The translations under genes were made by a program, and so were the position numbers. A stretch of 64,000 bases of DNA, from the NCBI GenBank assembly GCA_050175015.1, contig JBFXJJ010000003.1:145998-209997 (forward strand). The letters are read 5' to 3'. Below the pieces are notes generated by a model. The model saw nothing but the letters and a program-made list of their open reading frames with translations, was not told the origin of the DNA and ran no database searches. The DNA comes from Alphaproteobacteria bacterium. GTDB taxonomy: Bacteria; Pseudomonadota; Alphaproteobacteria; JBFXJJ01. Shown in pieces: positions 19,094-47,406 of this stretch (its first letter is position 1; every line of letters begins with the position of its first letter).

Positions 19094-20532
19094 ACCTCCG
19101 TAACTAATTCGGGTTTTGTAATTTGGGTATAAAGCCTTTCCAGCATATTCGCTGCAACGGTTGCTCGGTAATCGCCTGATGCTCTAAAGTCGCTTATGGG
19201 TTTAAAATCATCAGCAACGGCTTTTTTGGCATCTAAGAAAATGTCTTGGGTTACGTCTTTGCCATTAAGTGTTTTTTCAAGATTATAAGCAGGTTTGGGA
19301 ATTTCAGCCATACCGCCAAAGCCCGTTGTAAAATAAACTATTTTATTATTTTCAATTTTAAAGAAGAAAGCTCCGCAAACAGAAGAAATGTCTTGGTCGT
19401 GGCGTTTGGTAACTTTATAAACTTTGAATTGGAAACCTTTTTTTGGAATGGGAATCTTTATACTTCTGATAAATTCGCCTTCTTGTAAGGCAGTTTTACG
19501 ATAGCCTAAGAAAAATTCTTTAAGGGGAAGTTCTCTTGTTGCATCTTGCTTTTGTAAGTTTACGCTGGCTCCAAGAGCAATTAAAGATGGGGCAGAATCA
19601 CCAATAGGCGAAGCATTGCCGATGTTGCCGCCGATTGTTCCCAAATTGCGGATTTGGGTTGAACCTATTTTCCGTATTAATTTGCCATATTCGGGAATAT
19701 ATTTTTCAATTAAAGGCAGAGCCTTGACATAAGGAACGCTCGCACCAATTTCAATAAAATCAGAATTTTCGGTTAAAATATTGAGTTCGGGAATATCACA
19801 GGTGTGAATTACAACATCAAGTTTTCTATCTGCCTTAGTTACTAAAAGACCTAAATCAGTACCGCCTGCAAAAAGATAGGCACTGCTGTAATGATGATAA
19901 AGGGAACATAATTCTTTAAGGCTTTTAGGCGAAAAATAGGAAGTTTCATTATTGATTTCTAGGGTGTCTTGACGATTTCTAATCTGCTCAAACTTAGATA
20001 GAAGCTCGGCTTCATTACGGCTATACCAATCATCTTTTTTTCCACCAGTCCTTCTTGCAGCATCAATAATCGGGCGGTATCCAGTACAGCGGCATAAATT
20101 GCCCGCCAGCATTTCGTGGATCGTATCATCATCTTCATTACCTGTAACATCAGCGTGATACCACGCAAATAAAGACATTATGAAACCTGGGGTACAAAAA
20201 CCACATTGGCTGCCGTGTAGTTCATACATAGCTTGCTGCACAGGGTGAAGTTTGCCTTCTTTTGAAGCCAATCCCTCAACCGTTATCAGCATTTTGCCAT
20301 CAAGCTTAGGAACAAAAATTATGCAGCTATTGACCGCCTTATATTCAATTTTTCCATTAACAGGTTCTGCTAGAACAACAGTGCAGGCACCGCAATCCCC
20401 TTCAGCACAACCTTCCTTGGTACCATTTAGATTTTGATTTTTGCGCAAATATTCTAAAACCGTCGTCGTTGGCGGAAGATTAGAAATTTCGGTAAGCTCA
20501 CCATTTAATAAAAATCTTATTTTATTTGTCAT
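19081..20532 (-). CDS. xdhA: Xanthine dehydrogenase small subunit (2Fe-2S + FAD-binding)
   Basis: FLLNGE...CAEGDCGACTV and CGFCTPG/CRCTGY 2Fe-2S motifs, then a FAD-binding CO-dehydrogenase-type domain. Likely start MTNKIRF at 20532 with AAGGAG 7 nt upstream. Confidence 0.85.
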   Translation of the reverse strand: MTNKIRFLLNGELTEISNLPPTTTVLEYLRKNQNLNGTKEGCAEGDCGACTVVLAEPVNGKIEYKAVNSCIIFVPKLDGKMLITVEGLASKEGKLHPVQQAMYELHGSQCGFCTPGFIMSLFAWYHADVTGNEDDDTIHEMLAGNLCRCTGYRPIIDAARRTGGKKDDWYSRNEAELLSKFEQIRNRQDTLEINNETSYFSPKSLKELCSLYHHYSSAYLFAGGTDLGLLVTKADRKLDVVIHTCDIPELNILTENSDFIEIGASVPYVKALPLIEKYIPEYGKLIRKIGSTQIRNLGTIGGNIGNASPIGDSAPSLIALGASVNLQKQDATRELPLKEFFLGYRKTALQEGEFIRSIKIPIPKKGFQFKVYKVTKRHDQDISSVCGAFFFKIENNKIVYFTTGFGGMAEIPKPAYNLEKTLNGKDVTQDIFLDAKKAVADDFKPISDFRASGDYRATVAANMLERLYTQITKPELVTEVWEL

Positions 20533-20542
20533 TTTTACTCCT

Positions 20543-21883
20543 TTAAGCTCGTGGTTTTTGGAAGTTTCCATATCCACGTGCTACACAAATTCCGTCTTTG
20601 TGATCGTAAACTTTGCTACCTCTTACAAACGTCTGATATATTTTACCTTTAAAAATCATATTTTCAAATGGGGTAACTTTGCCCTTAGATAAAAAATCAT
20701 CGCCTTTAATAAGCCATTCATCAGCAGCATTAATTAAAACTATATCGGCATCTTTGCCAACTTTAATGGAACCCTTGCGGTCATCTAGTTTAAATTTTTT
20801 AGCAGTATTAAGAGAAGTTATTTCTGATAATTTCTTTAATGAAATTTTGCCTTTTAAATATCCTTCAGAAAACATATAAGGAAACAGGGTTCCAACTCCA
20901 GGAATCCCGCCATAAGCCTGCCAGATAGAACATTGTTTGCGTTCTTTAGGGCAGGGTGCGTGATCTGAGGTGATAAAAGATATTTTACCATTTTGAACAA
21001 GCTGCCACAATTCTTCTTTGTTATGATTTGGTTTTATGGGAGGACATATTTTAAGCGGCGCTCCAATTTTTTCAAAATCATCTAAGGTGAAAGCAAGATA
21101 ATGAGGACAGGTTTCGCCTGACAAATAAGGTTCATCAAGAAAAGACGCAGCTTTTGCTGTTCCAATATGAACAATGTGTAAGTCTGTTTGATATTTTTTT
21201 GCCAGAGATACAACTTTTTTTACAGCGGTAATTTCAGCTTCCTCAGGACGTGATTGAGAAAATTCCTTAGGTGAGTTGGATTCCTTGTTAACCTTTGCTT
21301 GATTGCAAACATCTTCATCTTCAGCGTGAACCATAACAATGCGGTCAAGTTCCTTAGCTGTTTTCAAAACCTCGTCAAGTTCGTCATACGAAACTTTAGG
21401 AAAAGTTTCCATACCAGAAAGCGTATAGGTTTTATATGCTGCCACATAAGGTGCAATTTCTTTCATATTTAAAGGAAAACCTTCAGTCATAGAAAGATGA
21501 CTTACTCCGCCGTGAAAAGCAAAGTCGATTATGGCTTTAGGTGAAACAATGCTTAATTTGTTTTCTAAATTGTTAAGACTAGTTACAGGAGGCAGAGAAG
21601 TGCAGGGCATATCAATGATAGTTGTTACTCCTCCAGAAGCTGCGGCACTTGTTCCTTGGAAAAAATCCTCTTGGGTTTCAAAACCTGGATCATTAAAATG
21701 AACGTGAGAATCTATTGCTCCAGGAAGAGCAAGCAAGCCTTTAGCCTCAACCGTATTTTTAGCATCAGGTAAGTCAGAGCCAATAGCGGCAATTTTGCCA
21801 TCTTTAACCAAAATATCGGCTAAAATGGTTTCTTCATTGCCCTCTATTAAGACTTCGGCTCCGCTAATTTTTAAATCATACAT
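20543..21883 (-). CDS. Cyclic amidohydrolase (allantoinase/hydantoinase/dihydropyrimidinase family)
   Basis: DSHVHFNDPGFE...GTSAAASGGVTTIIDMP metal-binding signature of the DHOase/allantoinase superfamily. 446 aa. Confidence 0.7.
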   Translation of the reverse strand: MYDLKISGAEVLIEGNEETILADILVKDGKIAAIGSDLPDAKNTVEAKGLLALPGAIDSHVHFNDPGFETQEDFFQGTSAAASGGVTTIIDMPCTSLPPVTSLNNLENKLSIVSPKAIIDFAFHGGVSHLSMTEGFPLNMKEIAPYVAAYKTYTLSGMETFPKVSYDELDEVLKTAKELDRIVMVHAEDEDVCNQAKVNKESNSPKEFSQSRPEEAEITAVKKVVSLAKKYQTDLHIVHIGTAKAASFLDEPYLSGETCPHYLAFTLDDFEKIGAPLKICPPIKPNHNKEELWQLVQNGKISFITSDHAPCPKERKQCSIWQAYGGIPGVGTLFPYMFSEGYLKGKISLKKLSEITSLNTAKKFKLDDRKGSIKVGKDADIVLINAADEWLIKGDDFLSKGKVTPFENMIFKGKIYQTFVRGSKVYDHKDGICVARGYGNFQKPRA

Positions 21884-21892
21884 TTTTACCCT

Positions 21893-24460
21893 CTATTTTT
21901 TAATATAACCCATAGGAAGATTAAAACGCTGTTTGCCGTCAAAGACTCTGAAAGCGCCTGCAACCGCAGAAGCCGTTGGCACTAAGCCGATTTCGCCTAA
22001 ACCTTTAGCACCGTAGGGACCATATTGATCAATCTCTTCAATCGGAATTACTTTCACTTCGGGTGTTTCTTTTACTCTTAAGATACCAATTTTTCCAAAT
22101 TTAGTGTGTACGGGATAACCATCTTTCCATTCACAGTCTTCGGTCAAAGCATATCCTAAACCCATATGGACAGCACCTTCTACTTGCCCTTCATAAAGGG
22201 TTTTGTTGATGATTCTTCCAGAATCGTGAGCGGCGATAACTTTTTTGATTCTACCTTCATCATCTAAGATAACGCATTGTGTCGCATAGCTGTAAGAATA
22301 ATGGGCAAAAGGTTTTTCAGGAAGTGTTCCTTTAAATGAATTATTCGTAAAATCACAAATCCAGTGTCCTTGATATTCCTTGCCAACAAGATTTTTTAAA
22401 CCATATTTATTAAGGTCTTGATTGAACTTCTGACAGGCATCAAGCATAGCATTTCCTAAAAGGGAGGTTCCTCTTGATGAGGTTGTCATACCGGTTGAGG
22501 CTTCAGAGCAGGTTTCATTTTTAACCGTTACAATTTCAGGGCTAAGTCCTGTTTCTTCACAAAATACTTGTAGAGCGACGGTGTGTACGCCCTGTCCCAT
22601 TTCGGTCCAGCCGTGATAAAGTTCAATTTTATCTTCAGCTTTGACAATTATTTTTACCAAGCTTTCATCAATACCGCCGTTGCCGACGCCAGTATTTTTC
22701 ACTCCGCAGGCAATGCCTGCAAATTTTGCGTTTTTGAAGTCATCTTTAACCGCAAGAAGCGTTTTCTTAAGTCCAACGCCTTGTTCTAAAATTTGTCCTG
22801 ATGTGATCATTGAACCAACATCAAGCGCATTATCATAACGGAACTGCCATCTGTCGAAGCCTCCTTGATGACATAAGTCATCAACGCAGGATTCCATAGC
22901 AAAGTTGGATTGGTTAACGCCAAATCCACGCATAGCTCCGCAAGGGACATTGTTAGTATAGATAGCCTTGGCTTCAATATCGAGATTAGGAACTTCGTAA
23001 GCTCCAGAAGAATGTCCTGCCGCACGTTCCATAACTTTCATACCAACAGAGGCATAAGCTCCAGTGTCGCCCAAAATATTGGCTTTTAATGCGGTGAGTT
23101 TGCCATTCTTGTCGCAAGCTAAGGTATATTCCAGTTTCATAGGGTGGCGTTTGGGGTGCATAAGCATTGATTCTTCTCGTGACAGCCTAACCCTTACAGG
23201 GCATTGGCAGAGCATCGAGTATACTGCTGCGTGTCCTTGAACGGTTAAATCTTCTTTACCGCCAAAAGCACCGCCATTTTGAACTTGAATAACATTAATG
23301 TTATTTTCTTCAAGACCTGTTATTAAGGAAATCTGTTTGCGGTCGACATAGACCCCTTGTCCTTGAGAATAAACCGTCAGTTTGCCTTCATCTGTAGGCA
23401 GAGCAACCGCACATTCGGTTTCTAGAAAAGCGTGTTCAATACGTTGGGTTGTCCAAACACCTTTTGTAACATATGCCGCATTTTTTATGGCATTTTCAGG
23501 ATCGCCGATCTTAAGCGAGCTTACAGATAGGACATTGTTTTCATCCCCGTCGTGAACTATTGGAGCATTGGGTAAAATGGCATCTTCCATAGAGCAAACA
23601 GGTGTTAAAACTTCATAGTCAACTTTTATCAATGAAGCTGCAAAACGAGCGGTTTCTTCACTGTCGGCAACCACTCCTGCAATCACATCTCCAATATAAT
23701 TGGTAACATCGCCCTCTTTTATCATAAATGGCCAGTCTAGCCTTACTAATCCAACTTTATTTTTAGTTGGCAGATCTTTTGCGGTTATAATCCTTACAAC
23801 GCCCTTAACTTTAAGAGCTTCCGAGGCATCAATGTTTAAAACCCTAGCTTTGGGATATTCTGAAAATTTAAGCGCTCCGAATTTCATACTCTCAAAAGTC
23901 ATATCAAAAACATAAGGACGCTTTCCTATAACCGCCATTGCGGTTTCATATTTTGAGGTTCGGCTTCCTATTTTGCCATCTTCTTTAGGAATAGGAGGAG
24001 CTTCTCCTCTTAGAATTTCTGCTGTAAAAAGAACGGCATCAATAATTTTTTTATAGCCCGTACAGCGGCAGATATTGCGGTTAATCGCAGCTTTTATATC
24101 ATCAATACTGGGATTAATATTATCTTTTAGAAGGCAGTATGCACTCATAACAATTCCAGGGGTGCAAAAGCCACATTGAATTCCGCCTTTTTCAACAAAA
24201 GCCCTAATAAAAGCCTGTTTAAAATCTTCAGGAAGCCCTTCCGCTGTTATAACTTCTTTCCCTGCAATTTTGCTTAAAGGCGTAACACAGGAAAGAGTTG
24301 CTTTGCCATCGACACACACCGTGCAGGCTCCGCAACTTCCCTGAGAACAGCCATCTTTAGGGGTGGTATCACCCCTAAAAAGACGTAAGTAGTTTAACAA
24401 AGAAATTTTGCTATCGCCTGAAAATTTTATTTTTTCTCCATTTACAATAAATTCCAGCAT
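21893..24460 (-). CDS. Second molybdenum hydroxylase with N-terminal 2Fe-2S ferredoxin domain fused to MoCo subunit (E. coli XdhD-like)
   Basis: N-terminal CSQGSCGACTV and CGFCTPG/CRCTGY motifs. The remainder is homologous to Mo-binding large subunits (GGAFGGKE). No FAD domain. 855 aa. Confidence 0.75.
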   Translation of the reverse strand: MLEFIVNGEKIKFSGDSKISLLNYLRLFRGDTTPKDGCSQGSCGACTVCVDGKATLSCVTPLSKIAGKEVITAEGLPEDFKQAFIRAFVEKGGIQCGFCTPGIVMSAYCLLKDNINPSIDDIKAAINRNICRCTGYKKIIDAVLFTAEILRGEAPPIPKEDGKIGSRTSKYETAMAVIGKRPYVFDMTFESMKFGALKFSEYPKARVLNIDASEALKVKGVVRIITAKDLPTKNKVGLVRLDWPFMIKEGDVTNYIGDVIAGVVADSEETARFAASLIKVDYEVLTPVCSMEDAILPNAPIVHDGDENNVLSVSSLKIGDPENAIKNAAYVTKGVWTTQRIEHAFLETECAVALPTDEGKLTVYSQGQGVYVDRKQISLITGLEENNINVIQVQNGGAFGGKEDLTVQGHAAVYSMLCQCPVRVRLSREESMLMHPKRHPMKLEYTLACDKNGKLTALKANILGDTGAYASVGMKVMERAAGHSSGAYEVPNLDIEAKAIYTNNVPCGAMRGFGVNQSNFAMESCVDDLCHQGGFDRWQFRYDNALDVGSMITSGQILEQGVGLKKTLLAVKDDFKNAKFAGIACGVKNTGVGNGGIDESLVKIIVKAEDKIELYHGWTEMGQGVHTVALQVFCEETGLSPEIVTVKNETCSEASTGMTTSSRGTSLLGNAMLDACQKFNQDLNKYGLKNLVGKEYQGHWICDFTNNSFKGTLPEKPFAHYSYSYATQCVILDDEGRIKKVIAAHDSGRIINKTLYEGQVEGAVHMGLGYALTEDCEWKDGYPVHTKFGKIGILRVKETPEVKVIPIEEIDQYGPYGAKGLGEIGLVPTASAVAGAFRVFDGKQRFNLPMGYIKK

Positions 24461-27055
24461 TTACCTGTCCTTCATACTAAGAGCGCCAGTAAAGCACATC
24501 TTCGTACAATAGGTACAGCCAACGCATTTATTAGGATCAAATACAGGTTTGCGGTTAGCATCAAGTGTTACTGCTTGATAACCACAGTTAGTACAATTTC
24601 CGCAAGATAAGCAAAGATCTTGGTTGCAAGTTGGAATTTGCTTGGTTGCAGGAAGATCCATAAAGTCAGTAATAGGGTTAGGCAAAGCACAGCCGATAAG
24701 TTCATTAACAGATTTAATTCTTTTAGCTTCTAATAAGTGAGAAAGTCCAGAATTAAGTTCTTTTATAATATGAACGCCGTGTTTCATTGCAATGGAGCAG
24801 AATTGAACATTTCTAACGCCAAGGGCAAGGAAGTTTGCTGCGGCTCTGTAATCCATTGGACCGCCGTTGCCTGAAATGAAGACGCCGAGAGGTGCGGCAT
24901 TAGCTAATGTTAAATAGCTGATAGGGAGCACGCCCTCGCCAGCCATACCAGCAACAACACCTTCGTCCCATTTACTATTGCCATCTTTTCTTGGTCTAAA
25001 GCCAAGAGTAGGGAAAGAGTTAGCAAGAGTTATTCCTACTTTCGATTTAGGATAATTTGCCATTGCGCCTTTAACCGCATTAATAATAGGAACGATGGAG
25101 GTAACCGCTGCGGTTAATTTGAAAATTTTAGGAATGTCAGGATTGCCTGCTTCTAAGACATATTCAATAATTTGTTGAGTTAGAGCCGCATTCTGGGAAA
25201 CAATATCCCCTTCGGTGCCATCACCGCCTTGAGGGCAGGAAAGGCTGTATTCAACCCCGATAACGCCTGCATCTTCAAGTTTTTTAGTGTTCGACTGCCA
25301 GCCTTTGCGGTCTGATTCTTCGTGTCCCGTAACAGGACCGCCGGTTGATGCCATTGTTAATCTGTCAGGATATTTTTTCCTTAGCTCTTCAACTTCACGG
25401 CAAACTCTTTCTAAGGCGTGATCAGAAACGTTATCGCAGTTAGCAAAAGTTGATTTAGTATAAGCAAACATATATCCAGCAGGAACGTGAATTGGAATAC
25501 CATCAAATGATGTTTTAAGAACACCGCCTGTCCAGCCATTTTGATATGCAAGCTTCATCTGATCGATACCGTCGGTGTGAGGCGCTGCTGACAAAATGAA
25601 AGGAGATGACATTTTAAAGCCGAAGAAATCACAAGTTAAATCAACAGGATTGGTATTAATACCTTCAACAGAGGTACGGCTTTTAGCTCTTTGTTTAACT
25701 AAAACCGAGGTTTTTTTCAAACTTTCATCGGTTTTTGTGCCATTTAAAAGAGCGTCAATATCGAGAGCTGCATTCTTACCAGAAGCAACAGCTTCAACAG
25801 CGGTTGAACCACCGTGAACACAATCGCCAGCATAAAATATTTTAGGATTTTTATCACTTTGGGTTTTATGACTGCCGCCAAGATATGATGCCTTGCCGCC
25901 AATAGCTAAAATAACTAGGTCAAAATCAGGACGTTTTACAGATGTTCCTGCAATATCAACTAACTTGCCTTCGTTGTTGTTAGTCGTTTTACAGGTTGTA
26001 AGCGTCTTTTTGCCATTTTCTTCAGTTATTTTTTCAACTCTGGTTCTGGTTGTAATATCAATTTTAGCGTCAAGTAAAAGCTGTCTTTCGTGTGATGTTA
26101 AACGCATATCTGCAACCGTTCTTCTAACAAACATTTCAACTTGAGAAGAACCAAGTCTTTTAGCTTCAGTTGCACAGTCTACAGCCACGGCTCCGCCGCC
26201 AATAATAGCAACGTTACCTTTGGTTTTATATTTTGCGGTATCTTTCAAATATTCCGTGAAAGGAAGCGCATTTTCAAGTTCGCCGTCAACTCCTAAGACA
26301 GAAAAATCAGGTTCGCCAACCGCAATCAAAACAGCATCAAAACCTTCCTTTAATAAACTTTCAGCATCTTCAACTTTAGTGTTTGATTTTAAAGTAATAT
26401 GGCTGGCTTCAAGCGTGAACTCATAATCTGCTTTGATGGCATCATCAGGCAGACGGCAATCTGGAATAAGAGAAGCGGCACCGCCTAAAACGTTTCTTTC
26501 ATCAAAAAGGGTGATTTCATAGCCTTTTCTTCCTAGGAAAGCAGCAGCTCCAATGCCCGCAGGTCCAGCGCCGATAACTGCTACTTTTCTGCCGTTTTTC
26601 GCTGGTTTTGCAGGAGCTTTAAGAACGCCTAAGTCTCGAGCTTTTTTGATGACGGTTGCTTGAATAGCAGGAATATTAATAGCTTTATCAAAGTTTTTCT
26701 TAGAGCAAGCACCCATACAAAGATTATCAGGGCAGATAATGCCGCAAACGTGTCCCAAAGGGTTTGCTGCTAAAATTTCTTTAGCCGCTCTGGCTATATC
26801 TTGTGGGGCTCCTTGTTTTGCTGCCATAATAAAGTCAGCAGGAGAACAGTGAACAGGGCAGCCTTCAAGACAAGGCTTATCTGCGCAGTATAAACATCTA
26901 TCAATTTCAGCTTGCAGCTGAGCATCAGTTAAATAAAGATTATTAGTCAAAATTTGCTCCTTAAAAATTATTAAGATTTTTTTATTAGAAACGATTCCAA
27001 AGATTCTTTGCAGCTTCCATAGATTTTGCCGCAGCTTCTTTTTCATCAACATCAA
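24461..27055 (-). CDS. Dihydropyrimidine-dehydrogenase-like flavo-iron-sulfur oxidoreductase (YgfK/PreT-PreA fusion type)
   Basis: N-terminal Cys cluster (CLYCADKPCLEGCPVHC). Two dinucleotide folds (VAVIGAGPAGIGAA and VAIIGGGAVAVDCA). DHODH-like barrel. C-terminal 2x[4Fe-4S] ferredoxin (CLSCGNCTNC...CVGCTYCTKMC). 864 aa. Confidence 0.7.
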   Translation of the reverse strand: MMLMKKKLRQNLWKLQRIFGIVSNKKILIIFKEQILTNNLYLTDAQLQAEIDRCLYCADKPCLEGCPVHCSPADFIMAAKQGAPQDIARAAKEILAANPLGHVCGIICPDNLCMGACSKKNFDKAINIPAIQATVIKKARDLGVLKAPAKPAKNGRKVAVIGAGPAGIGAAAFLGRKGYEITLFDERNVLGGAASLIPDCRLPDDAIKADYEFTLEASHITLKSNTKVEDAESLLKEGFDAVLIAVGEPDFSVLGVDGELENALPFTEYLKDTAKYKTKGNVAIIGGGAVAVDCATEAKRLGSSQVEMFVRRTVADMRLTSHERQLLLDAKIDITTRTRVEKITEENGKKTLTTCKTTNNNEGKLVDIAGTSVKRPDFDLVILAIGGKASYLGGSHKTQSDKNPKIFYAGDCVHGGSTAVEAVASGKNAALDIDALLNGTKTDESLKKTSVLVKQRAKSRTSVEGINTNPVDLTCDFFGFKMSSPFILSAAPHTDGIDQMKLAYQNGWTGGVLKTSFDGIPIHVPAGYMFAYTKSTFANCDNVSDHALERVCREVEELRKKYPDRLTMASTGGPVTGHEESDRKGWQSNTKKLEDAGVIGVEYSLSCPQGGDGTEGDIVSQNAALTQQIIEYVLEAGNPDIPKIFKLTAAVTSIVPIINAVKGAMANYPKSKVGITLANSFPTLGFRPRKDGNSKWDEGVVAGMAGEGVLPISYLTLANAAPLGVFISGNGGPMDYRAAANFLALGVRNVQFCSIAMKHGVHIIKELNSGLSHLLEAKRIKSVNELIGCALPNPITDFMDLPATKQIPTCNQDLCLSCGNCTNCGYQAVTLDANRKPVFDPNKCVGCTYCTKMCFTGALSMKDR

Positions 27056-38276: not shown

Positions 38277-39437
38277 TCATTTACGGTTTACAATGTTTTC
38301 AACAATGTAAGCGTTGAGCCAGCGCAAAGTTGCGACATTACAGCCTTTGCCCAAATGAACTGTTTTGTGTTTATAGGTCATTGCTACAAAATAGATGTCT
38401 TCAGCTTCACGGTAGATGACATCAACCGCATTTATAGTGTTTTTATCAAAAGTTACATTTTTAAAATAAAACCAAGGAAATTTGCAGATAAAACATATTT
38501 TATCTTGATATATGATTAAAGCCTGACGTCTTAAAATCATTAATAAAGGTAATGCAAAAACCATTATAGCTGTTGTTAAAATAAGCAATTCTCGAACAAG
38601 AACGCTATCATCTGAGATAAAACTAACTCTTGGAGCAAGCAAGATAATGAAACAGCAAAACAACTCTATAACTGAAGCAACAAGAAAAGCTCCAGATTCT
38701 CTAGGAATATTTTTAATAACGAGCAATGTTTTATCTTTTTTTTCTTTAACATAAATATCTTTAGGTTGTTTCTCGTTGGGGTTAAAGCGGTGTGTAATCT
38801 TGCCTTCATTAACAAGTTCAACTAAAGGTTTTTCAAGATCGTTATAGTTTAGGAGTTTGTATCCGTCAGAAATGCGGGTTATTGCTGGCATACTTAAATC
38901 TTGAGCTATTTTTTGCCAGCGATGACGGATATTCCTAGTGTTTTTACCAATATATAAGGGAATCGTTTTTCTTGTATCTTCGTGTAGAAGTTCTATGACG
39001 TGATGAGTTTTTACAAAGAAGCCATATTTAAAAATGCGAGAACGATAACGTATGCCTAAATAGTTGGCAATTGGTTCAACAAAAGGTGTTTGGTAACTTA
39101 AAAGCCCAAAATATTTTACGCTGACATTTTGATGATCGATAAAAATTTCTTTTTTCTGAAAGAATAACGAGAGATTTGCAATAATAAATATTAAACCAAC
39201 AAGGGGAAAAATATAAAAAAAAGAACTAGCTTGGTGTTCTAAGTAAATATCTTCAGTTATGATGCTGCTATTGCCGCTTCCATAATAACTCATAATTGGA
39301 ACAATCAGTAAGATAAGTCCGATAAAAAGCCCTTTAATGCTTTTGCTAAGAGGTACTCGGTCGAAAAATTTTATAGGCTTAAAAGATGTATCAATATCAA
39401 GATTAATACTTAAGTGATTGGGAGCGTTTTGTTTCAT
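38277..39437 (-). CDS. Membrane protein with duplicated (TM pair + ~100 aa cytoplasmic domain) architecture, bPH/YdbT-like
   Basis: Two hydrophobic hairpins, each followed by a basic soluble region. No recognisable catalytic motif. Confidence 0.35.
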   Translation of the reverse strand: MKQNAPNHLSINLDIDTSFKPIKFFDRVPLSKSIKGLFIGLILLIVPIMSYYGSGNSSIITEDIYLEHQASSFFYIFPLVGLIFIIANLSLFFQKKEIFIDHQNVSVKYFGLLSYQTPFVEPIANYLGIRYRSRIFKYGFFVKTHHVIELLHEDTRKTIPLYIGKNTRNIRHRWQKIAQDLSMPAITRISDGYKLLNYNDLEKPLVELVNEGKITHRFNPNEKQPKDIYVKEKKDKTLLVIKNIPRESGAFLVASVIELFCCFIILLAPRVSFISDDSVLVRELLILTTAIMVFALPLLMILRRQALIIYQDKICFICKFPWFYFKNVTFDKNTINAVDVIYREAEDIYFVAMTYKHKTVHLGKGCNVATLRWLNAYIVENIVNRK

Positions 39438-39604: not shown

Positions 39605-42600
39605 ATGCAAAATTTATATGACGTTTTTTCAGAATACCCAAACCTTTTAGCTAGTACTATAGGTATTATCGGCGTTATTTTTGCACTTAACTATTTAAAC
39701 AAACAAGAAAGCGCTCCTTTTGGTTTGATGTATATCAATCAGGGATTTGCTGCTTTAATTCTAACCATAGTGATGAAAATTCCAGAATATATGGATTTGG
39801 AATTTTCCTATCTATCGGTTTTTGAGCTGGTTTTTTTAGGGGCAACTCTTTGCTTGTTTATCTCTGGAGGACTGTCGTTAAAAGGCGTTAAAGTGAAGTT
39901 TTATGTTACTCTTGCTTTAATGGTGGTGATTTTACTTTGGATTTTTAATGTTGTTTTTTTAAGCGGAAGCTATGTCTTAATGTTTTTGACTAAATATCTG
40001 CTTCCAACATTGGCTTATGGTTTTCTTAGCTATAGCTTTTTGACGAGGAAAACGCAGTCAAGGAAATCAGGCTTTAAGGCGTTTGGCTTTTTTGCTATGG
40101 CCTCCTCAATATATTATTTTGCGCAGATTTTATCTTTTATAAGTTTTTTACATGATCTTTGGTTCTTTATGCCCCTAATGTATGCGGGCTTTGCCTTTAG
40201 TATTATGCTGATGGCTAACAACTTGATTCAGCATCAATGTGATGTATATAAAAACGAAGCCGAAGATATTAAAAGCAAGCTGAGGCTTATAATTCAGTCT
40301 TCACCTTTTCCAATTACAATATCCCGTCTTAAAGACGACCAGATGATATTAGTTAATAAAAGTGCGGCGGATCTTTTTGGCATTAATCCTAATAATCCGC
40401 AGTCATATCGTATGGTTGACTTCTTTGCCGATCAAAATAATAGGAAAGAGTTATTAAATAAACTGAATGCTCATAAAGTTGTTGAAGATTTTGAAGTACT
40501 GGTTAAGGGAAGAAACACAGGAAAGCCATTTTGGCTTTTGCTATCGGCCAGAGTTATTGACTTTGAGTATAGTGTGGCTCTTTATTGCGCGTTCCAAGAT
40601 ATTACTAACCGTAAAAATAAAGAAAAAGAGTTGTTTGATCAAGCAACGAGAGATCCTCTAACGGGAGCATTCAACCGCAGACAATTTGAAGAGATCGTTA
40701 AAAAAGAATTTGCCCGCTGCAAACGTTATGGTGGAACATTCTGTATTATTATGGTTGATGCTGATCACTTTAAAAATGTTAATGATACTTATGGTCACCA
40801 AACTGGTGACGAAGTTCTTAAAGCTCTATCAAAAAGCTTTTTTGATACTTTGAGAGAAACTGATGCTGTGTTTAGATTTGGTGGTGAGGAATTTGTTTTA
40901 CTGCTTCCAGAAATTACATTGGAAAATGCATATAGTGTAGCAGAAAGACTTAGAACTATTATTTCTGAGATTGAGGTTTTAGCAGAGGATAAAGAAAGCA
41001 TTGTTAGGTTCACTGTTAGTATGGGTATTGTAGAATCTACTCAGGCAGAAGAGCCCAACGATTTGGTTAAGCTTTCGGACGATGCGTTATATGAGGCAAA
41101 AGAAACAGGTAGAAATAAAGTTGTTATTTCAAAAGCTGTTCGTCAGGAGGTTAAACCTATAAGCAACAGCACAAATCCAAATCGAGATAATCATGCTAAG
41201 AAAGAATTAGATGAGATAGACAATATTAAGTCTGATTATGATTTTGATGAGGAATTGCCAATAGACGATGACTTCGTATCAGATGGTGGCGGAGTAGGAA
41301 AAATCAAGTTAGCTCCCAAAATTGATATGAATAAAATTCAAAGCGAGATTTCTGCTAAGTTAGAAAAAGATAAAGATGAAGGAGAAGATGCAGAAGAAGC
41401 AGATTCCGTTGATGTTGAACAAGTTTCAGAAGAAAACAATGGAATTCCAGCCCCAGCATTTAACAGTGATTCTTATGATGAACTCCCCGCAGAGCCGGCT
41501 TTTGAAGGTGAAAGCTATGATGCCGAGCTTCCCTCGCTTGATGAAGAAACCTTATTGCCAGAATATGAAGAACAGCCTCTTGATGATAGCTTGGCTATTC
41601 CAGAGTATGGAGAAACTTCTTCTGAAAGTTATGAAGATCTTCCCGCTGAGGAGCAGTTGGTATATGATGAATTACCAGCAGAAGAGGCGGTTTATGATGA
41701 AGTTCCATTAGAGGACGTTCAAGATTACGGTGAACTTCCTGCCGAAGGCGCGGTGTACGATGAAACTCATCTTGATGATGAAGCATCTTATGCGGAATTG
41801 CCGCCCGAACAGGGTTTTGAAGATGAAAGCTATGATGCCGAGCTTCCCTCGCTTGATGAAGAAACCTTATTGCCAGAATATGAAGAACAGCCTCTTGATG
41901 ATAGTTTGGCTATTCCAGAATATGGTGAAGCGGTTCCTGAAAGTTATGAAGATCTTCCCGCTGAGGAACCGTTGGCATATGATGAATTACCAGCGGAAGA
42001 ATTGCCAGTATATGACGAACTTCCAGCAGAAGAGGCGGTTTATGATGAAGTTCCATTAGAGGACGTTCAAGATTATGATGAACTTCCTGCCGAAGGCGCG
42101 GTGTACGATGAAACTTCTCTTGATGAAGCATCTTATGCTGAATTGCCGCCCGAACAGGGTTTTGAAGATGAAAGTTATGATGCCGAGCTTCCTCCGCTTG
42201 ATGAAGAAGCCTTATTGCCAGAATATGAAGAACAGTCTCTTGATGAAAGTTTAGCTATTCCAGAATATGGCGAAGCGGTTCCTGAAAGCTATGACGAGCT
42301 TCCCGCAGAGGAACAAGCTTATGATGAGTTACCAGCGGAAGATATGGTTTATGAGGAAGCACCTTTAGAAGATAATCAAGATTACGGTGAGCTCCCCGCA
42401 GAAGAGGCTATTCCAGAATTAGAAATTGAAAAAGAGGTTTTGCCTGATACAAAAGAACTTCCTATGAAAAAAATGACGGCATCACAACCAATGCCATCTC
42501 CTACGATTATAAGGAAGCCAGAGCTGTCAGTTGCTCCTAGTCATTCTGTTCCACCAGCTCCAACTGCAATAAAAACGCCGCAGGCTCAAGGAGCAGTTTC

Positions 42601-42688
42601 AAATCCGCCTTTGGTTAAAAAAGTTGTAATTAAAAAAGTGGTAAAAAAGGTAGTTAAGGTTATTAAAAAACCAGTTCCGAAACCATAA
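39605..42688 (+). CDS. Multi-TM sensor diguanylate cyclase (PAS-GGDEF, active-site GGEEF) with long acidic tandem-repeat tail and basic Lys/Val C-terminus
   Basis: About 6-7 TM N-terminal domain, a PAS-like segment, and RDPLTGAFNRRQFEE...DADHFKNVNDTYGH...RFGGEEF (I-site RxxD present). It continues with repeats and ends PPLVKKVVIKKVVKKVVKVIKKPVPKP. Confidence 0.8.
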   Translation: MQNLYDVFSEYPNLLASTIGIIGVIFALNYLNKQESAPFGLMYINQGFAALILTIVMKIPEYMDLEFSYLSVFELVFLGATLCLFISGGLSLKGVKVKFYVTLALMVVILLWIFNVVFLSGSYVLMFLTKYLLPTLAYGFLSYSFLTRKTQSRKSGFKAFGFFAMASSIYYFAQILSFISFLHDLWFFMPLMYAGFAFSIMLMANNLIQHQCDVYKNEAEDIKSKLRLIIQSSPFPITISRLKDDQMILVNKSAADLFGINPNNPQSYRMVDFFADQNNRKELLNKLNAHKVVEDFEVLVKGRNTGKPFWLLLSARVIDFEYSVALYCAFQDITNRKNKEKELFDQATRDPLTGAFNRRQFEEIVKKEFARCKRYGGTFCIIMVDADHFKNVNDTYGHQTGDEVLKALSKSFFDTLRETDAVFRFGGEEFVLLLPEITLENAYSVAERLRTIISEIEVLAEDKESIVRFTVSMGIVESTQAEEPNDLVKLSDDALYEAKETGRNKVVISKAVRQEVKPISNSTNPNRDNHAKKELDEIDNIKSDYDFDEELPIDDDFVSDGGGVGKIKLAPKIDMNKIQSEISAKLEKDKDEGEDAEEADSVDVEQVSEENNGIPAPAFNSDSYDELPAEPAFEGESYDAELPSLDEETLLPEYEEQPLDDSLAIPEYGETSSESYEDLPAEEQLVYDELPAEEAVYDEVPLEDVQDYGELPAEGAVYDETHLDDEASYAELPPEQGFEDESYDAELPSLDEETLLPEYEEQPLDDSLAIPEYGEAVPESYEDLPAEEPLAYDELPAEELPVYDELPAEEAVYDEVPLEDVQDYDELPAEGAVYDETSLDEASYAELPPEQGFEDESYDAELPPLDEEALLPEYEEQSLDESLAIPEYGEAVPESYDELPAEEQAYDELPAEDMVYEEAPLEDNQDYGELPAEEAIPELEIEKEVLPDTKELPMKKMTASQPMPSPTIIRKPELSVAPSHSVPPAPTAIKTPQAQGAVSNPPLVKKVVIKKVVKKVVKVIKKPVPKP
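41460..42430 (+). repeat. Intragenic tandem DNA repeat, ~3 copies of a 315-345 bp unit (near-identical), encoding acidic YDELPAE/EYGE-rich units
   Basis: Unit starts (gaaag[c/t]tatgatgccgagcttcc...) at 41510, 41825 and 42170. Copy 2 carries a 30-nt internal duplication (ELPVYDELPAE). Confidence 0.85.
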
Positions 42689-42715
42689 TACTTAACAAAA
42701 CGGATTTAAAATAAT

Positions 42716-42977: not shown

Positions 42978-44573
42978 TTATGAATCAGGATTTATTCCAT
43001 ATTCCTGCCATAATTTTTTTAATTTAGGATAGTTTTCTTGATCAACAGTACTGGTCAAAAATTTTCCCGCGGTAATTGTTGAAGACCAGTAATAAGCATC
43101 TAGCCCAGCTTGGCGTTTTAGTTCATTTAAAAACAGTTTTTTATCTTTTATATATGACCATACCTCAGGTAAGAGCAAAGCCAATTTTTTATCTTTTTCC
43201 TGAAAGATAACTCCATCAATATTGGGCTCAATTTGATCAAGCAATTCTCTTTCGTTAGTGAAAGATAACGGATAAGGAGGGGTTAGAAGAGAGATTTTTA
43301 CTGAAATAAAGGGAAGTTCTTTTTTATTAATAGGTTTGAAATTATTATCGTAAAAAGCAGCAAAGAAAGCATTGGTCGCAATGTCTTGCAGAATATTTTC
43401 CTTGGGCGTTAAAGAACCCATAGCACCTCTAATAGATCCAGATTTATTGATGCTCACAAAAGAAATTCCAAAACTTCTTAGTTCTTTAGGATAATCTTTT
43501 GGGTTAACAATAAGGGGTTTTCCTGTTTTGATTCCATTTATAATCGAATCAAAAGCGATTTTAACTAAGGTTTTGCCATACTTCTCAGTAATATCATTAA
43601 GTATTTGCTGTTCTTTTACTAACGGATTAACAAGAGGAGCATAGATTGCAAAGCTGGCATAGCCTACGACGCTGTCCCTTCGAATGTCGACATCACCAGA
43701 ACTTTTGATATCTAAGATTTTTATAGCATAGCCATATTGGTTGGCATAATTCAAAAGAGCTTGAATTGCTAAATAACCAGAAGCCTTAGCCTTATCGAGA
43801 TTTCTAATGTTGTATCCCAAAATAGCTTTAGATGTTGCGATATCTGCTTTTTTGCCTTCCATATAACTTAAATTGGTAGACAAATTGGAGCATACAATAA
43901 GCAACGTATCATCATCTTTAAGAGCCTTATTAATGAATAAGTCCATTTCTCCGATGTTGGTTTCTCCAAAAATTGCAGGAACAATTGTAACGCTGCCAAG
44001 TGTTTCATAGATAAAAGGCAGTTGAATTTCGATGCTGTGTTCATTTTTATGAACGCTTGCCAGCATTCTAACAAAAGGTAAATCTAAAAGAGCTTTGTTT
44101 GTTGGCTGATCTACTGTAACAGATCCAAAAGGCATTTGCCATTTAGCCGCTGGAGAAAGAGCTATGCCTGAAAATTTGCTGTAAGTTGCAGGTGCAAGAA
44201 TTACAACTTTTTTTATTTTGTTTTTTAAGCTTTTTATTTGGGCATAAGCCGTTCCTGCGGTAATGCCAGAATAACCTAGTGATGAATGAGGAACGATTAA
44301 GGCTTTTATCGGATATTGTTCATTAACAATCTTGGCATCTTTCATAAGATTATTAATTTGTTTTCGTAGTTGGTCGCTGTTTGCGGGATAAAAAAGATTA
44401 GCAACCGCAGGTTTGCGGTCTTCAATCTTTGATGTTTCAATCTGATTTTGCGTTTTAAATAACAATTCAGGAAAAAAAATTACAAACCAAAAAGCTACCG
44501 TTATTATTAAAAGAAAAACAATGAAAAATAACTCTAAGCGAAAAGATTTGTCTGTTGTTTTTAGTGAAAGCAT
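42978..44573 (-). CDS. Membrane-anchored fusion of Memo1-like (AmmeMemoRadiSam protein B) and AMMECR1-like (protein A) domains
   Basis: N-terminal TM helix. ALIVPHSSLGYSGITAG resembles Memo HAGYxYSG. The C-terminal ~190 aa has an AMMECR1-like ...SGSIRGAMGS... motif (consensus LRGCIG, with Cys replaced by Ala). Confidence 0.55.
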   Translation of the reverse strand: MLSLKTTDKSFRLELFFIVFLLIITVAFWFVIFFPELLFKTQNQIETSKIEDRKPAVANLFYPANSDQLRKQINNLMKDAKIVNEQYPIKALIVPHSSLGYSGITAGTAYAQIKSLKNKIKKVVILAPATYSKFSGIALSPAAKWQMPFGSVTVDQPTNKALLDLPFVRMLASVHKNEHSIEIQLPFIYETLGSVTIVPAIFGETNIGEMDLFINKALKDDDTLLIVCSNLSTNLSYMEGKKADIATSKAILGYNIRNLDKAKASGYLAIQALLNYANQYGYAIKILDIKSSGDVDIRRDSVVGYASFAIYAPLVNPLVKEQQILNDITEKYGKTLVKIAFDSIINGIKTGKPLIVNPKDYPKELRSFGISFVSINKSGSIRGAMGSLTPKENILQDIATNAFFAAFYDNNFKPINKKELPFISVKISLLTPPYPLSFTNERELLDQIEPNIDGVIFQEKDKKLALLLPEVWSYIKDKKLFLNELKRQAGLDAYYWSSTITAGKFLTSTVDQENYPKLKKLWQEYGINPDS

Positions 44574-44687: not shown

Positions 44688-46061
44688 ATGATATATCCCA
44701 ATCGTGTAGATATTAAAAAATTCCGATTTGTTAGTTGCGATTTTGATGAAACGCTAAACCAAGCATCTTTAGTTTATGCTTTTGATGACAAAATAACGTT
44801 TGAAGAAACCTTTGTTTTTGAAAATGCCCCGCACGTTTCCCAAGAAAGAATGCCTGCTCTTAAAAGATGTTTAAAATATCTTCATTTAGCGGCAGGAGTA
44901 AGTTACTACAAAGCTTTTATTCCCAAAGAAATAGCCGTTGAAACAACGACTTTATCTAAAGATGAAGCCGATTTTTTTAACCAATTTTATTTATCTGGAC
45001 TAGGCGAGTTTAGTTTTAAGAATAATCTCAATCTTCAAGATATTATCAAATTTCCTTATGAGGCAGATTATCAAGCAGAAAAAATAGCCAATGATTTTAG
45101 ATTAAAAGAGCAGCCGATAGTTCCCGTTGGCGGCGGCAAAGATTCTATTGTAACTATTGCGGCGCTAAAAAATGCTGGGCTTAAGCCTGTTTTGTTTTCG
45201 GTTGGTTTTCCTGCGCCCATAGCTGGCACAGTAGAAATAGCTGGGCTTAAAAACATTGTCGTTACAAGAAAAATCGCTAAATCTTTATTGGAATTAAACC
45301 AAAAATTAAAAGAATGTGATGCCTTTAACGGTCATATCCCTGTTACTGGTGTTTTTGCTTTTTTGCTGGCAATGTCGGCGGTGATATATGATTTCGATGC
45401 GGTGTTAATGTCTAACGAGCGTTCGGCTAATTCTGAAAACATTGTTCGAGATGATGGTTTTCTTATTAATCATCAATGGAGCAAATCTTTTGAATTTGAA
45501 ATGATGTTTAAAAAATTTGCAGATAGGTATCTTCTTGATAATTTTAAGTATTTTTCTTTTTTGAGACCGCTTTCAGAGCTTTATATTGCTAAGCTCTTTT
45601 CCCGCAGCCAAGATTTCTTTGATGTTTTCACAAGCTGTAATCATGCTTTTGCCATTATGCAGGAGAATCGCAGCAAAGGTTGGTGTCTAAATTGTGATAA
45701 ATGCCGGTTTGTTTATTTAGCATTGGCACCATTTATTGAAAAAAGTCGAATGATAGCGATTTTTGGTAAAGATTTACTAGACGACGAAACTCAGGAAAAA
45801 GGCTTTTCCGAATTGCTAGGACTTTCAAAATATAAGCCTTTTGAATGTGTCGGTGAAATAAAAGAGTGTCAAGCCGCTCTATTTCTGCTTAATCAAAAAC
45901 CAGAATGGCAGTCTAGCTATATCGTTAACAAATTGGCTAAACAGTTAAATACTAGTGATACTAAAATGACAAAGATAGTTGAAGATGTTTTGAGTTTATC
46001 AAAAGAACATCAGATTCCAGAAAAATATATGGAGGCATTAAATGCTTATCTCAGAGCTTAA
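44688..46061 (+). CDS. ATP-pyrophosphatase-like protein (PP-loop-like VGGGKDS) with C-terminal Cys cluster; candidate MurL-type epimerase partner of MurD2
   Basis: IVPVGGGKDSIVTIAAL (compare the SGGxDS PP-loop) and CLNCDKCRF. Overlaps the start of the MurD-like gene by 20 nt. Confidence 0.4.
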   Translation: MIYPNRVDIKKFRFVSCDFDETLNQASLVYAFDDKITFEETFVFENAPHVSQERMPALKRCLKYLHLAAGVSYYKAFIPKEIAVETTTLSKDEADFFNQFYLSGLGEFSFKNNLNLQDIIKFPYEADYQAEKIANDFRLKEQPIVPVGGGKDSIVTIAALKNAGLKPVLFSVGFPAPIAGTVEIAGLKNIVVTRKIAKSLLELNQKLKECDAFNGHIPVTGVFAFLLAMSAVIYDFDAVLMSNERSANSENIVRDDGFLINHQWSKSFEFEMMFKKFADRYLLDNFKYFSFLRPLSELYIAKLFSRSQDFFDVFTSCNHAFAIMQENRSKGWCLNCDKCRFVYLALAPFIEKSRMIAIFGKDLLDDETQEKGFSELLGLSKYKPFECVGEIKECQAALFLLNQKPEWQSSYIVNKLAKQLNTSDTKMTKIVEDVLSLSKEHQIPEKYMEALNAYLRA

Positions 46062-47406
46062 AGGCAAAAAAATTGTTATATGGGGATTAGGACAAGAAGG
46101 CAAAGCAACCTTAAGATGTCTCAGAGCTAAAGGTATCGATTCTGAAATAGTTATTTTTAATGACAAACCTATGAGCGTTGATGATAAAGAAGCGTTGATT
46201 CATTTTTCTCCCCTTAAATTTGCTTCAATGGAAGATTTAGATGTTCTTATGAATTCTGATGTCGTTATCAAAGCACCTGGGGTTAGCCTTTATCGTGATG
46301 AAGTAATTAAAGCAAAACAAAAAGGCATTATTTTTACTTCAGCAACTAATATCTGGTTTGCAGAGAGTCGTAAGAACAATCCCGATATGAAAATCATCGG
46401 GGTAACTGGAACTAAGGGCAAAAGCACAACATCAAGCTTAATTGCGCATTACTTAAGAGTTGCAGGTTATGAAACAGCGATTGGCGGCAATATCGGTGTG
46501 CCTTTAGTTGATTTTTTAACTAGTGATAAAAAATTTGAAGTAACGGTTGCAGAGATATCTAGTTATCAAGCTAGTGATTTACAATATTCTCCTGATGTTG
46601 GTGTGCTGCTTAATCTTTATCCTGAACATATCGATTGGCATAAATCACACGATCGTTACTATGATGATAAGCTTAATTTGTTTGCTCATAGAGGCACAAA
46701 CCCTGTTGTTTTAAACTGCAATGATCCAAGGACAAAAGAAAAGTGTGCTAATTGGGATAATGTAGTTTATTTTAATGACAAATCGGGGATTTATGTCGGC
46801 GATGGCTTTATTATGGACGGCATAAAACGTTTAGAGGCGTTTTCTGAAATTAAAATCAGAGGTTATCATAATTATTGCAATATCTGCACAGCTCTAACTG
46901 TGGTTAAAGTGCTGGGCTGTGATGTCGCACTTTGTGCCAAAGCAACGGGCGATTTTGATGGTTTACTGCATCGTTTGCAGATTGTGGGAGAAAAAGAGAG
47001 CAAGATTTTTGTCAATGACAGCATTTCAACAACACCTGAGACCGCAGTGGCTGGAATTGAGGCTTTTGCAGACAAACCGATTGTTTTGATTGCTGGCGGT
47101 TATGATAGAGAACAGAATTACGAAGTTTTAGCTAAAGCGGTTCTTAAATATGACGTTAAAGCTGTTGTAACAATGCATACAACGGGCGCAAGAATTGCAG
47201 AAACCGTTGGAAAAGCTATTTCTGAGGCAGCAAAAGATGTTGCCGTTATTCAAACATCAGGACTTGAAGAAGCGTTTAAAACAGCTAATAATTATACGCC
47301 TAAAGGTGGGGTTGTTTTAATGTCGCCTGCCGCTCCAAGTTATGGCGCTTATAAAGATTTTAAAGAACGGGGAGAGCATTTTATCCGCCTGTTTAAAGAT
47401 TTATAA
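46042..47406 (+). CDS. MurD-family UDP-N-acetylmuramoyl-L-alanine:glutamate ligase paralog (candidate MurD2)
   Basis: Motifs align with MurD along the whole length: IVIWGLGQEG, GVTGTKGKSTTSSL, GGNIG, EISSYQ, LNLYPEHIDWH, GYHNYCN, GLLHRLQ...NDSISTTPE, LMSPAAPSYGAYKDFKERGEHF. Not located in a dcw cluster. Confidence 0.75.
   Translation: MLISELKGKKIVIWGLGQEGKATLRCLRAKGIDSEIVIFNDKPMSVDDKEALIHFSPLKFASMEDLDVLMNSDVVIKAPGVSLYRDEVIKAKQKGIIFTSATNIWFAESRKNNPDMKIIGVTGTKGKSTTSSLIAHYLRVAGYETAIGGNIGVPLVDFLTSDKKFEVTVAEISSYQASDLQYSPDVGVLLNLYPEHIDWHKSHDRYYDDKLNLFAHRGTNPVVLNCNDPRTKEKCANWDNVVYFNDKSGIYVGDGFIMDGIKRLEAFSEIKIRGYHNYCNICTALTVVKVLGCDVALCAKATGDFDGLLHRLQIVGEKESKIFVNDSISTTPETAVAGIEAFADKPIVLIAGGYDREQNYEVLAKAVLKYDVKAVVTMHTTGARIAETVGKAISEAAKDVAVIQTSGLEEAFKTANNYTPKGGVVLMSPAAPSYGAYKDFKERGEHFIRLFKDL

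Follow-up and report, generated by a model that had tools for sequence, protein, structure and literature searches.

A long acidic tandem-repeat tail, predicted to be disordered, on a diguanylate cyclase from an alphaproteobacterial genome

The GGDEF domains of diguanylate cyclases, the synthases of cyclic di-GMP (c-di-GMP), are metal-dependent (Mg2+) and act as dimers, with catalysis requiring dimerisation. The specificity of these enzymes is thought to come from local signalling, that is, from proximity to particular effectors, but what positions them is for the most part unexplained. Other bacterial proteins are already known to contain disordered acidic repeat regions and coding minisatellites. 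In TonB, an extended periplasmic spacer of ~70 residues runs from a (Glu-Pro)n block into a (Lys-Pro)m block and then into the folded TonB C-terminal domain. FtsZ consists of a globular enzyme, a disordered linker of variable length and poor conservation, and a short conserved terminal peptide. The TRP32, TRP47 and TRP120 proteins of Ehrlichia and Anaplasma are secreted soluble effectors with acidic, disordered tandem repeats of strain-variable copy number. PMC12918733 describes HubP/FimV as membrane-anchored, with an extensive acidic cytoplasmic region, partly made of tandem repeats, that serves as a docking hub. Here, we focus on a diguanylate cyclase of 1027 residues encoded in a 64,000-nucleotide stretch of an Alphaproteobacteria bacterium assembly (GCA_050175015.1, contig JBFXJJ010000003.1, positions 145,998 to 209,997; hereafter the window). 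Half of this protein is an acidic tail carrying genuine in-frame tandem repeats, and we put at about even the chance that the tail is a polyanionic tether, or a docking region with many binding sites, serving local c-di-GMP signalling.

The tandem repeats (Table 1) are real and far beyond chance. Tandem Repeats Finder gives a period of 345 nucleotides (nt) with 2.0 copies, 91% matches and a score of 1148, and an ungapped repeat finder recovers three copies with start-to-start spacings of 315 and 345 nt. A preliminary description, made from the letters alone, had placed the unit starts at 41510, 41825 and 42170, which identifies the right array but lies 9 nt out of the coding register. It had also called the copies near-identical; this holds for units 1 and 2 (u1/u2, 93.9% codon-aligned DNA identity) but not for unit 3 (u1/u3, 80.8%; u2/u3, 82.0%). 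The 30-nt internal duplication that it reported in the second copy is correct as a net gain, whereas the underlying event is a 33-nt duplication of one decamer (AYDELPAEELP, 41975-42007) minus a 3-nt codon elsewhere. All unit lengths are multiples of 3 nt, so the units follow one another in frame, and the cyclase reading frame is uninterrupted over its 1027 codons in a window with a GC content of 37%.

An array of this kind raises the question of whether the assembler expanded or collapsed the copy number, an explanation that we regard as very improbable. It is true that short-k Logan contigs stop inside the array and that the two most similar copies fall exactly in the unbridged interval 41538-42145. 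However, no exact repeat in the array exceeds 81 bp (41509-41589 = 41824-41904), which is less than an ordinary read length, every copy has diagnostic variants of its own, and orthologues from many independent assemblies carry arrays of like kind. Two k=31 Logan contigs, both from run SRR27751817, match the window at 100% identity, one stopping at 41538 and the other beginning at 42145. From the left, the first copy-specific base is 41508, and from the right it comes after a 35-bp shared block (42140-42174). For a graph built with k=31, these positions dictate breaks at 41508+30 = 41538 and 42175-30 = 42145, and the observed contig ends match this prediction from the window sequence to the base. 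With these break points and an 81-bp longest exact repeat, an assembly artefact is unlikely, and the array appears consistent with the graph evidence and resolvable by ordinary reads.

Comparison of the units points to translated copies under purifying selection with a constrained peptide sequence, since dN/dS between them (Nei-Gojobori) is 0.27 for u1/u2 (dS 0.15), 0.15 for u1/u3 (dS 0.83) and 0.14 for u2/u3 (dS 0.78). The same values suggest that the array was built in at least two steps well apart in time and is not very young, because dS is 0.15 between units 1 and 2 but ~0.8 to unit 3. As had been claimed, the repeat block is extremely acidic: residues 621-942 (322 residues) contain 118 Asp or Glu and not a single Lys or Arg, for a net charge of -118, along with 11% Pro and 8% Tyr. 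The decameric sub-repeat is also evident, with 27 Tyr residues spaced 8-16 residues apart, mostly 10-11, in conserved contexts (+1 D/E, +2 E, +3 L, +4 P, +5 A/L/P, +6 E). The tail is therefore hierarchical, as this regular spacing and context make the ~105-residue unit a higher-order repeat: the 10-11-residue motif xY(D/E)ELPAEE occurs ~27 times, nine motifs form one unit, and the unit has been duplicated twice. The shorter pattern [DE][LIVM]Px[DE] is likewise enriched in the window tail (z=15.7).

The repeats have a GC content of 44% compared with the 37% of the window, and horizontal acquisition was rejected as the cause since the codons for Glu, Asp, Pro and Ala explain the difference. Two open reading frames (ORFs) in an alternative frame of the plus strand (41376-41711 and 41730-42059; ~110 residues, M/K-rich) were rejected as genes and look like by-products; they resemble each other because both lie on the DNA repeat. 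No minus-strand ORF of at least 80 residues lies within the tail region (41100-42700), no Rfam family matches in the cyclase and tail region, and no other ORF in the window has a tail-like composition or motif.

Ahead of the tail, the protein has a seven-helix membrane domain, a PAS domain and a GGDEF domain. The product matches NCBI MGD9638087.1 exactly, which is on a 213-kb contig of a metagenome-assembled genome (MAG) and is annotated 'MAG: diguanylate cyclase [Alphaproteobacteria bacterium]'. In the preliminary description the GGDEF domain was called intact with a GGEEF active site, and the profile scores bear this out (Pfam PF00990, 155.4 bits with a cut-off of 23.8; TIGR00254, 174.4 bits with a cut-off of 37.4), as do an RxxD inhibitory-site motif (I-site) and the match to solved GGDEF domains. 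Across an alignment of 67 family sequences, R417, D420 and GGEEF are invariant, and so are D385, N393, D402 and the R/K positions involved in metal and GTP binding. A Foldseek search with the modelled domain returned 3ign (TM score 0.94, root-mean-square deviation 1.2 A over 166 residues), with DosC, PleD and DgcR also among the matches. In its catalytic part the protein is a standard GGDEF enzyme, and judging from these residues the core is catalytically intact and apparently active. AlphaFold2, run with the family alignment, models almost all of residues 1-512 with a predicted local distance difference test (pLDDT) score above 90, comprising seven membrane helices, the PAS domain and the GGDEF domain, and the last membrane helix runs on as a stalk into the PAS domain. 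The seven-helix domain, which is kept across the cyclase family and modelled with high confidence, matches no Pfam family; a weak NCBIfam match of the MASE3 type (E=0.0038) is the sole hint of a family for it.

Beyond the GGDEF domain, the picture changes. The preliminary description had the ORF continue for ~400 residues, while the actual figure is ~520, of which the tail itself makes up 512. The 512-residue C-terminal tail is predicted to be intrinsically disordered, in line with what had been proposed: residues 516-1027 are modelled with pLDDT <50 and have no secondary structure. Its hydropathy maximum is 0.92 (Kyte-Doolittle, 19-residue window), which leaves no transmembrane segment, and because it also lies downstream of a domain that uses GTP, the tail must be cytoplasmic. 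Following the repeat block, a basic segment that is first Pro-rich and then Lys/Val-rich finishes with LVKKVVIKKVVKKVVKVIKKPVPKP (42611-42685), which includes a 15-bp x2 DNA repeat.

The search that placed this tail in context was made with the full-length protein. Beyond the self-match, the best hits were ~65 proteins of 730-1002 residues that are 43-47% identical over the core. These long orthologues come from uncultured Alphaproteobacteria (source label 'MAG: Alphaproteobacteria bacterium'), and more distant members of the family have 570-600 residues. No member of the family is without a tail, and acidic tails are in the majority. In the long orthologues (P0002-P0064 and P0070-P0079 in our numbering), the tails measure 230-503 residues and are acidic, Pro-rich and composed of tandem repeats that are specific to each lineage, such as an 18-residue unit in P0028 (ELPSEEEALPEEYPPVEA), a 27-residue unit in P0042 (PEMYAEPALEPEVEPELPPEVPEAVEA) and ~30-residue units in P0052. 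For two orthologues this was followed to the DNA level, where repeats of 54 bp x6.3 and 81 bp x6.7 occupy the same relative position. The long tails end in a conserved basic motif (KKxPIKMPxGMVKxPKMPGVVRVKIPK). An acidic Pro-rich array with acidic-hydrophobic-P-(L/P)-acidic motifs, followed by a basic C-terminus rich in Lys, Pro and hydrophobic residues, is thus the rule in ~65 orthologues. The window tail is of the same kind, being acidic, Pro-rich, tandemly repeated and longer than 200 residues. The attachment of such a tail to a c-di-GMP synthase had been called unusual, which is fair in that the literature searched offers no precedent; within the orthologous family, long acidic repeat tails are the rule.

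The tails share a short motif in addition to their composition. The pattern [DE][LIVMP]P[LPI]x?[DE][DE] occurs 120 times in 117 distinct family tails, where shuffles that preserve composition lead one to expect 11. As many as 57 tails have it, compared with 10 expected, and it does not occur in the cores; these counts are descriptive, as the motif was defined after the sequences had been inspected. Among 4-mers, ELPP and LPPE have the widest distribution in the family tails. The AlphaFold model of P0024 has a disordered tail as well, including the conserved C-terminal motif, and in neither this model nor that of the window protein is the terminal motif docked onto the folded core. In P0024, a segment that follows the GGDEF domain and is conserved in the long-tail clade (residues 499-532, VVYxxxGPNKDLPxPxGEDIxKxKAEPLYYF) is modelled as structured with pLDDT ~85-90, collapsing near residue 535. 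A short-tail clade (P0082-P0120, with P0084, P0087 and P0093; loci L001-L003) has conserved tail motifs of its own, HPxFDKE..EISLLDG and a terminal LGVDEEDL. A P/Q-rich spacer of ~150 residues separates EISLLDG from LGVDEEDL in P0087 and P0093, an insertion of another kind at the same place that fits the logic of a variable spacer with a terminal short motif.

Length variation could be followed in the orthologues. Among 18 sequence variants whose cores (first 500 residues) are 98.8-100% identical, the lengths are 748, 765/766, 784, 819/820 or 837/838 residues. In 15 of them the stretch between fixed flanks could be parsed, giving 1, 2, 3, 5 or 6 copies of the 18-residue unit, and the internal patterns of unit variants differ among these near-identical-core alleles as well. 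A second group of orthologues (cores 94-99% identical) has lengths of 839, 911, 947 and 1002 residues with 3-6 matches to EPALEPEVE, the core motif of the 27-residue unit. The length variants of both groups come from short-read metagenome assemblies, in which partial collapse of an array is possible. Given lineage-specific units and copy numbers that vary among near-identical alleles, the tail arrays appear to behave in evolution as coding minisatellites that change through slippage or unequal recombination. The strain-to-strain variation predicted in the preliminary description therefore stands by analogy, through orthologue alleles with 1-6 copies. For the window species itself there is a single public sequence: no second strain was found by exact protein look-up in assemblies, through the flanking genes, which led to the two Logan contigs of a single run, or in the JGI metagenomes. 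A scan of the GTDB representative genomes also lacked the species, the best matches being orthologues from rumen MAGs with 37-40% identity and short tails.

When the tail alone was used as the query, next to nothing was found. An exhaustive phmmer search of 1.84 billion representatives returned only the protein itself and P0121 (E=2.6e-4), which was rejected as a spurious low-complexity SLSYDELS ORF. The JGI metagenomes gave no match to the tail. Neither the tail nor the 105-residue unit had a credible Pfam match at E<=10, known Ca-binding families included, which agrees with the earlier statement that the unit is not a known domain. Against NCBIfam there was only a match of 0.15 to a Pro-rich stretch of DipM, and no PDB sequence matched at E<=1. 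By these searches the tail belongs to no family described so far. When a profile built from the C-terminal motif of the orthologues was run against a set of 5.8 billion proteins, it retrieved only five fragments of 83-98 residues and missed known full-length members, which makes that search uninformative.

From this evidence, the most economical reading would be that the tail is a tether or a multivalent docking region by which the cyclase is positioned or clustered, by analogy with the acidic region of HubP/FimV, the linker and terminal peptide of FtsZ and the EP/KP spacer of TonB. The tail would take no part in catalysis. With ~37% charged residues, all of them negative, and 11% Pro, the repeat block would on general polymer reasoning be a strongly expanded polyelectrolyte, which could place the basic end at a distance of tens of nanometres from the enzyme in the membrane, or else let that end loop back to anionic lipids. 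In doing so, it would display ~27 repeats of one short linear motif, together with the basic end, for contact with a partner or an anionic membrane. The tail would thus localise, space or cluster the cyclase for local c-di-GMP signalling, and the number of repeats would set its reach and valency. A more specific version can be formulated in which a copy-number-tunable array of ~27 xY[DE]ELPAEE docking motifs, with the basic end, recruits a specific partner or clusters the enzyme, so that minisatellite changes tune the valency and reach of a c-di-GMP hub. This would amount to an undescribed, disorder-based form of cyclase regulation, present family-wide in lineage-specific versions, and we consider it doubtful in this full form.

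Several observations count against the tether or docking reading. A word search with the tail alone against 5.8 billion proteins found no homologue, and tail-bearing relatives surfaced only with the full-length protein as query. In the literature searched, no GGDEF protein or diguanylate cyclase is described whose tail is disordered, acidic, Pro-rich or made of tandem repeats. Scored with the profile of the family's C-terminal motif, the C-terminus of the window protein reaches -8.6 bits, and 174 of 1000 shuffled controls do at least as well. Homology of its KKVV-rich end to that motif is thus not claimed, as the score does not rise above the shuffles; what the two ends share is a K/V/P-rich composition and a KKhhhKK element. 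In a crude neighbour-joining tree of the core, the window protein falls outside the main long-tail clade, beside P0065 with its 147-residue tail, and the window tail may share composition, not descent, with the other tails. To these points can be added the definition of the shared motif after inspection and the short-read origin of the relatives' variants, both given above, and the fact that the functional part of the reading is one that we infer. The window protein also does not have the structured extension of ~30 residues that follows the GGDEF domain (GPNKDLPxPxGEDIxKxKAEPLYYF, as in P0024), with disorder setting in from residue 516. Because the C-terminus is at shuffle level, this extension is absent and the tree places the protein apart, the 512-residue tail probably arose independently and in parallel, by expansion of an acidic tail that was short in the ancestor. 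An independent expansion would mean, in turn, that the design of an acidic array plus a basic end is recurrent and not merely inherited.

The functional models are not separable by sequence tools, and the charge of the tail in particular lends itself to other readings. Cation binding had been raised in the preliminary description, and the tail might accordingly be a cation sink or sensor, in which ~150 carboxylates bind Mg2+, Ca2+ or polyamines with high capacity and low affinity and so couple the GGDEF reaction or the conformation of the tail to cations. This accords with a net charge of -118 over 322 residues without one basic residue, and with covalent attachment to a metal-dependent catalytic domain. 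Charge, however, is not all that is constrained: the motif keeps its Tyr, Leu and Pro positions, dN/dS is 0.14-0.27, a motif of the type acidic-hydrophobic-P-(L/P)-acidic is over-represented family-wide, and the tail contains no known Ca-binding family even at E<=10. We find a cation sink unlikely, while noting that it is compatible with the tether model and not exclusive of it. Alternatively, the basic end could bind the acidic block, which would compact or autoinhibit the enzyme in cis or cluster it in trans in the manner of a coacervate, thereby controlling GGDEF dimerisation. Such self-association is suggested by the strong segregation of charge, from -118 to +13 at the end, and by the recurrence of the acidic-then-basic order in ~65 orthologues. 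The blocks are nevertheless very unbalanced (118 versus 13-17), so that the basic end can neutralise just a small part of the tail; AlphaFold2 predicts no docking of the terminal motif; and the short-tail clade ends in an acidic LGVDEEDL and not in a basic motif. To us this makes charge-driven self-association improbable, to much the same degree as the cation sink.

A different kind of objection is that the tail could have no function at all, being low-complexity junk made by slippage and tolerated at a C-terminus. Units that differ between lineages, an unstable copy number and a window tail that is without homologues and apparently expanded independently are what neutral expansion would produce. 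Yet dN/dS between copies stays at 0.14-0.27 even at dS ~0.8, the frame has remained open for >1.5 kb in an AT-rich genome, every family member has a tail, in most cases an acidic one, and the shared motif is ~11-fold enriched over shuffles, which together leave a purely neutral origin quite unlikely. Finally, the 27 acidic Tyr motifs (YDEL/YDEV) could be directed at a host, mimicking phosphotyrosine/SH2 or sorting signals in the manner of EPIYA, Tarp or Tir, with the basic C-terminus as a type IV secretion signal. The tail contains nine matches to YDE[VLP], which we take to resemble the Nck-binding pYDEV of Tir, and three matches to [DE]xxxL[LI], and four tandem VirB6-like paralogues lie 6 kb downstream. 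The protein is, however, a seven-helix integral membrane enzyme with a cytoplasmic tail, many orthologous tails are poor in Tyr, and there is no evidence of cleavage or secretion, so a host-directed role seems extremely improbable. A cytoplasmic tether or docking region is the reading that we carry forward.

The tail is not the only feature associated with the cyclase gene. The divergent gene upstream encodes a product homologous to the cyclase neighbours in L001 (E=5e-29) and L084 (E=4e-27). The pairing of the cyclase with a divergent upstream membrane protein of ~400 residues is found in the window, in the short-tailed loci of rumen MAGs (L001-L003) and in the long-tailed loci L084 and L085. 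Conservation of this neighbour supports orthology and, since it holds for short- and long-tailed relatives alike, suggests a functional link, with the neighbour as a possible partner of the cyclase.

Table 1. Coordinates of the cyclase gene, its parts and the neighbouring gene (window positions)
Feature	Coordinates	Strand	Basis or remark
Divergent 386-aa membrane protein, no Pfam family	38277..39437	-	Homology to relatives' neighbours
Complete cyclase gene, 1027 aa, 7TM-PAS-GGDEF (TM, transmembrane helix) plus predicted disordered tail	39605..42688	+	ORF list; exact protein match
N-terminal membrane domain, seven predicted helices	39605..40300	+	AlphaFold2 helices H2-32 to H188-232, pLDDT >85; hydropathy
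PAS domain, aa 225-334	40277..40606	+	Pfam PAS_9 34.6 bits (cut-off 27), PAS 30.7 bits (cut-off 22.6)
GGDEF catalytic domain, aa 347-505	40643..41119	+	Pfam GGDEF E=1.4e-45
RETD I-site (RxxD), aa 417-420	40853-40864	+	Five residues upstream of the GGDEF motif
GGEEF active site, aa 426-430	40880-40894	+	Sequence motif
Proximal non-repetitive acidic linker, aa 511-620, net charge -17, contains DYDFDEELPIDDDF	41135..41464	+	Composition; pLDDT 31-52
Partial seed unit, 11 aa, DSYDELPAEPA	41468..41500	+	Directly before unit 1
Repeat unit 1 (u1), 315 nt, 105 aa	41501..41815	+	Tandem Repeats Finder, repeat search, codon register
Repeat unit 2 (u2), 345 nt, 115 aa	41816..42160	+	93.9% DNA identity to u1
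Repeat unit 3 (u3), 261 nt, 87 aa, truncated	42161..42421	+	81-82% identical to u1/u2
Basic Pro/Lys/Val-rich C-terminal segment, aa 943-1027, net charge +13	42431..42685	+	Composition; pLDDT <50

Elsewhere in the window, other features were recorded. Four consecutive large ORFs of 706, 414, 694 and 676 residues occupy 48807-56398 (+); those of 706 and 694 residues are 29% identical (E=4e-59) and those of 694 and 676 residues 25% identical (E=2e-30), the 414-residue ORF not being part of this comparison. Three of the four have sub-threshold Pfam matches to TrbL/VirB6 (E~1e-3). Tandem VirB6-like genes recall the rvh type IV secretion system of the Rickettsiales, and by that analogy the array may hint at a host-associated lifestyle. 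A Memo-AMMECR1 fusion of 531 residues (42978-44573, -) adjoins a pair consisting of a MurL-type epimerase and a Mur ligase (44688-47406, +), as assigned from Pfam families. At 16745-27055 (-) lie subunits of molybdoenzymes of the xanthine-dehydrogenase/aldehyde-oxidase type and a dihydropyrimidine-dehydrogenase-like Fe-S flavoprotein. An ORF of 1405 residues (50-4267, +) matches no Pfam family even at E<=1 save at chance level. The sole Rfam match in the window is a ffh small RNA (10234-10284, +; 40.3 bits with a gathering score of 35) just upstream of the ORF at 10295-11728.

Beyond the preliminary description, the analysis adds that the feature is family-wide, that its length variation is demonstrated in relatives and that it has a recurrent architecture of an acidic array plus a basic end with a shared short motif. 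Polyanionic repeat tails, predicted to be disordered and making up half of each protein throughout the orthologous family, with a repeat number that varies between alleles, suggest that positioning or scaffolding based on disorder could be tunable in natural populations. The relatives provide a natural test system in which the same catalytic core is found with 1 to 6 repeat units. Even if the tail were functionless, it would still be a clean bacterial example of a coding minisatellite under purifying selection.

Set beside the systems described at the outset, the window protein resembles each in part. Like PleD, DgcR, WspR and DosC, it has a PAS domain followed by a canonical GGDEF domain with GGEEF and RxxD, and it superposes on solved structures; unlike them, half of it is a long acidic tail predicted to be disordered, and no such tail is described among the matched solved or curated relatives or in the literature searched. 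The tails of the orthologues recall TonB in the order of an acidic Pro-rich and a basic Pro-rich block, and P0042 (EPALEPEVEPELPPE..., then KMKLPVKMMAVKVPQMP) is especially alike. In contrast to TonB, these tails are cytoplasmic, reach up to 500 residues and end without a folded domain, and the window protein has no TonB_C match. With the Ehrlichia and Anaplasma TRPs it shares strongly acidic, disordered tandem repeats within the Alphaproteobacteria, but it is a polytopic inner-membrane enzyme and no similarity to them was detected. The logic of FtsZ is found again in the main long-tail clade with its KMPGVVRVKIPK end and in the short-tail clade with its LGVDEEDL end, although there is no sequence relationship and the linker of the cyclases derives from recent tandem repeats and is far more acidic. 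HubP/FimV offers a functional analogy only, in that the window tail too is an extensive acidic cytoplasmic repeat region. The window protein has neither a LysM nor a C-terminal FimV/TPR domain by Pfam and no sequence similarity to HubP/FimV, and whereas HubP/FimV is a dedicated scaffold, here the acidic region is fused to an enzyme.

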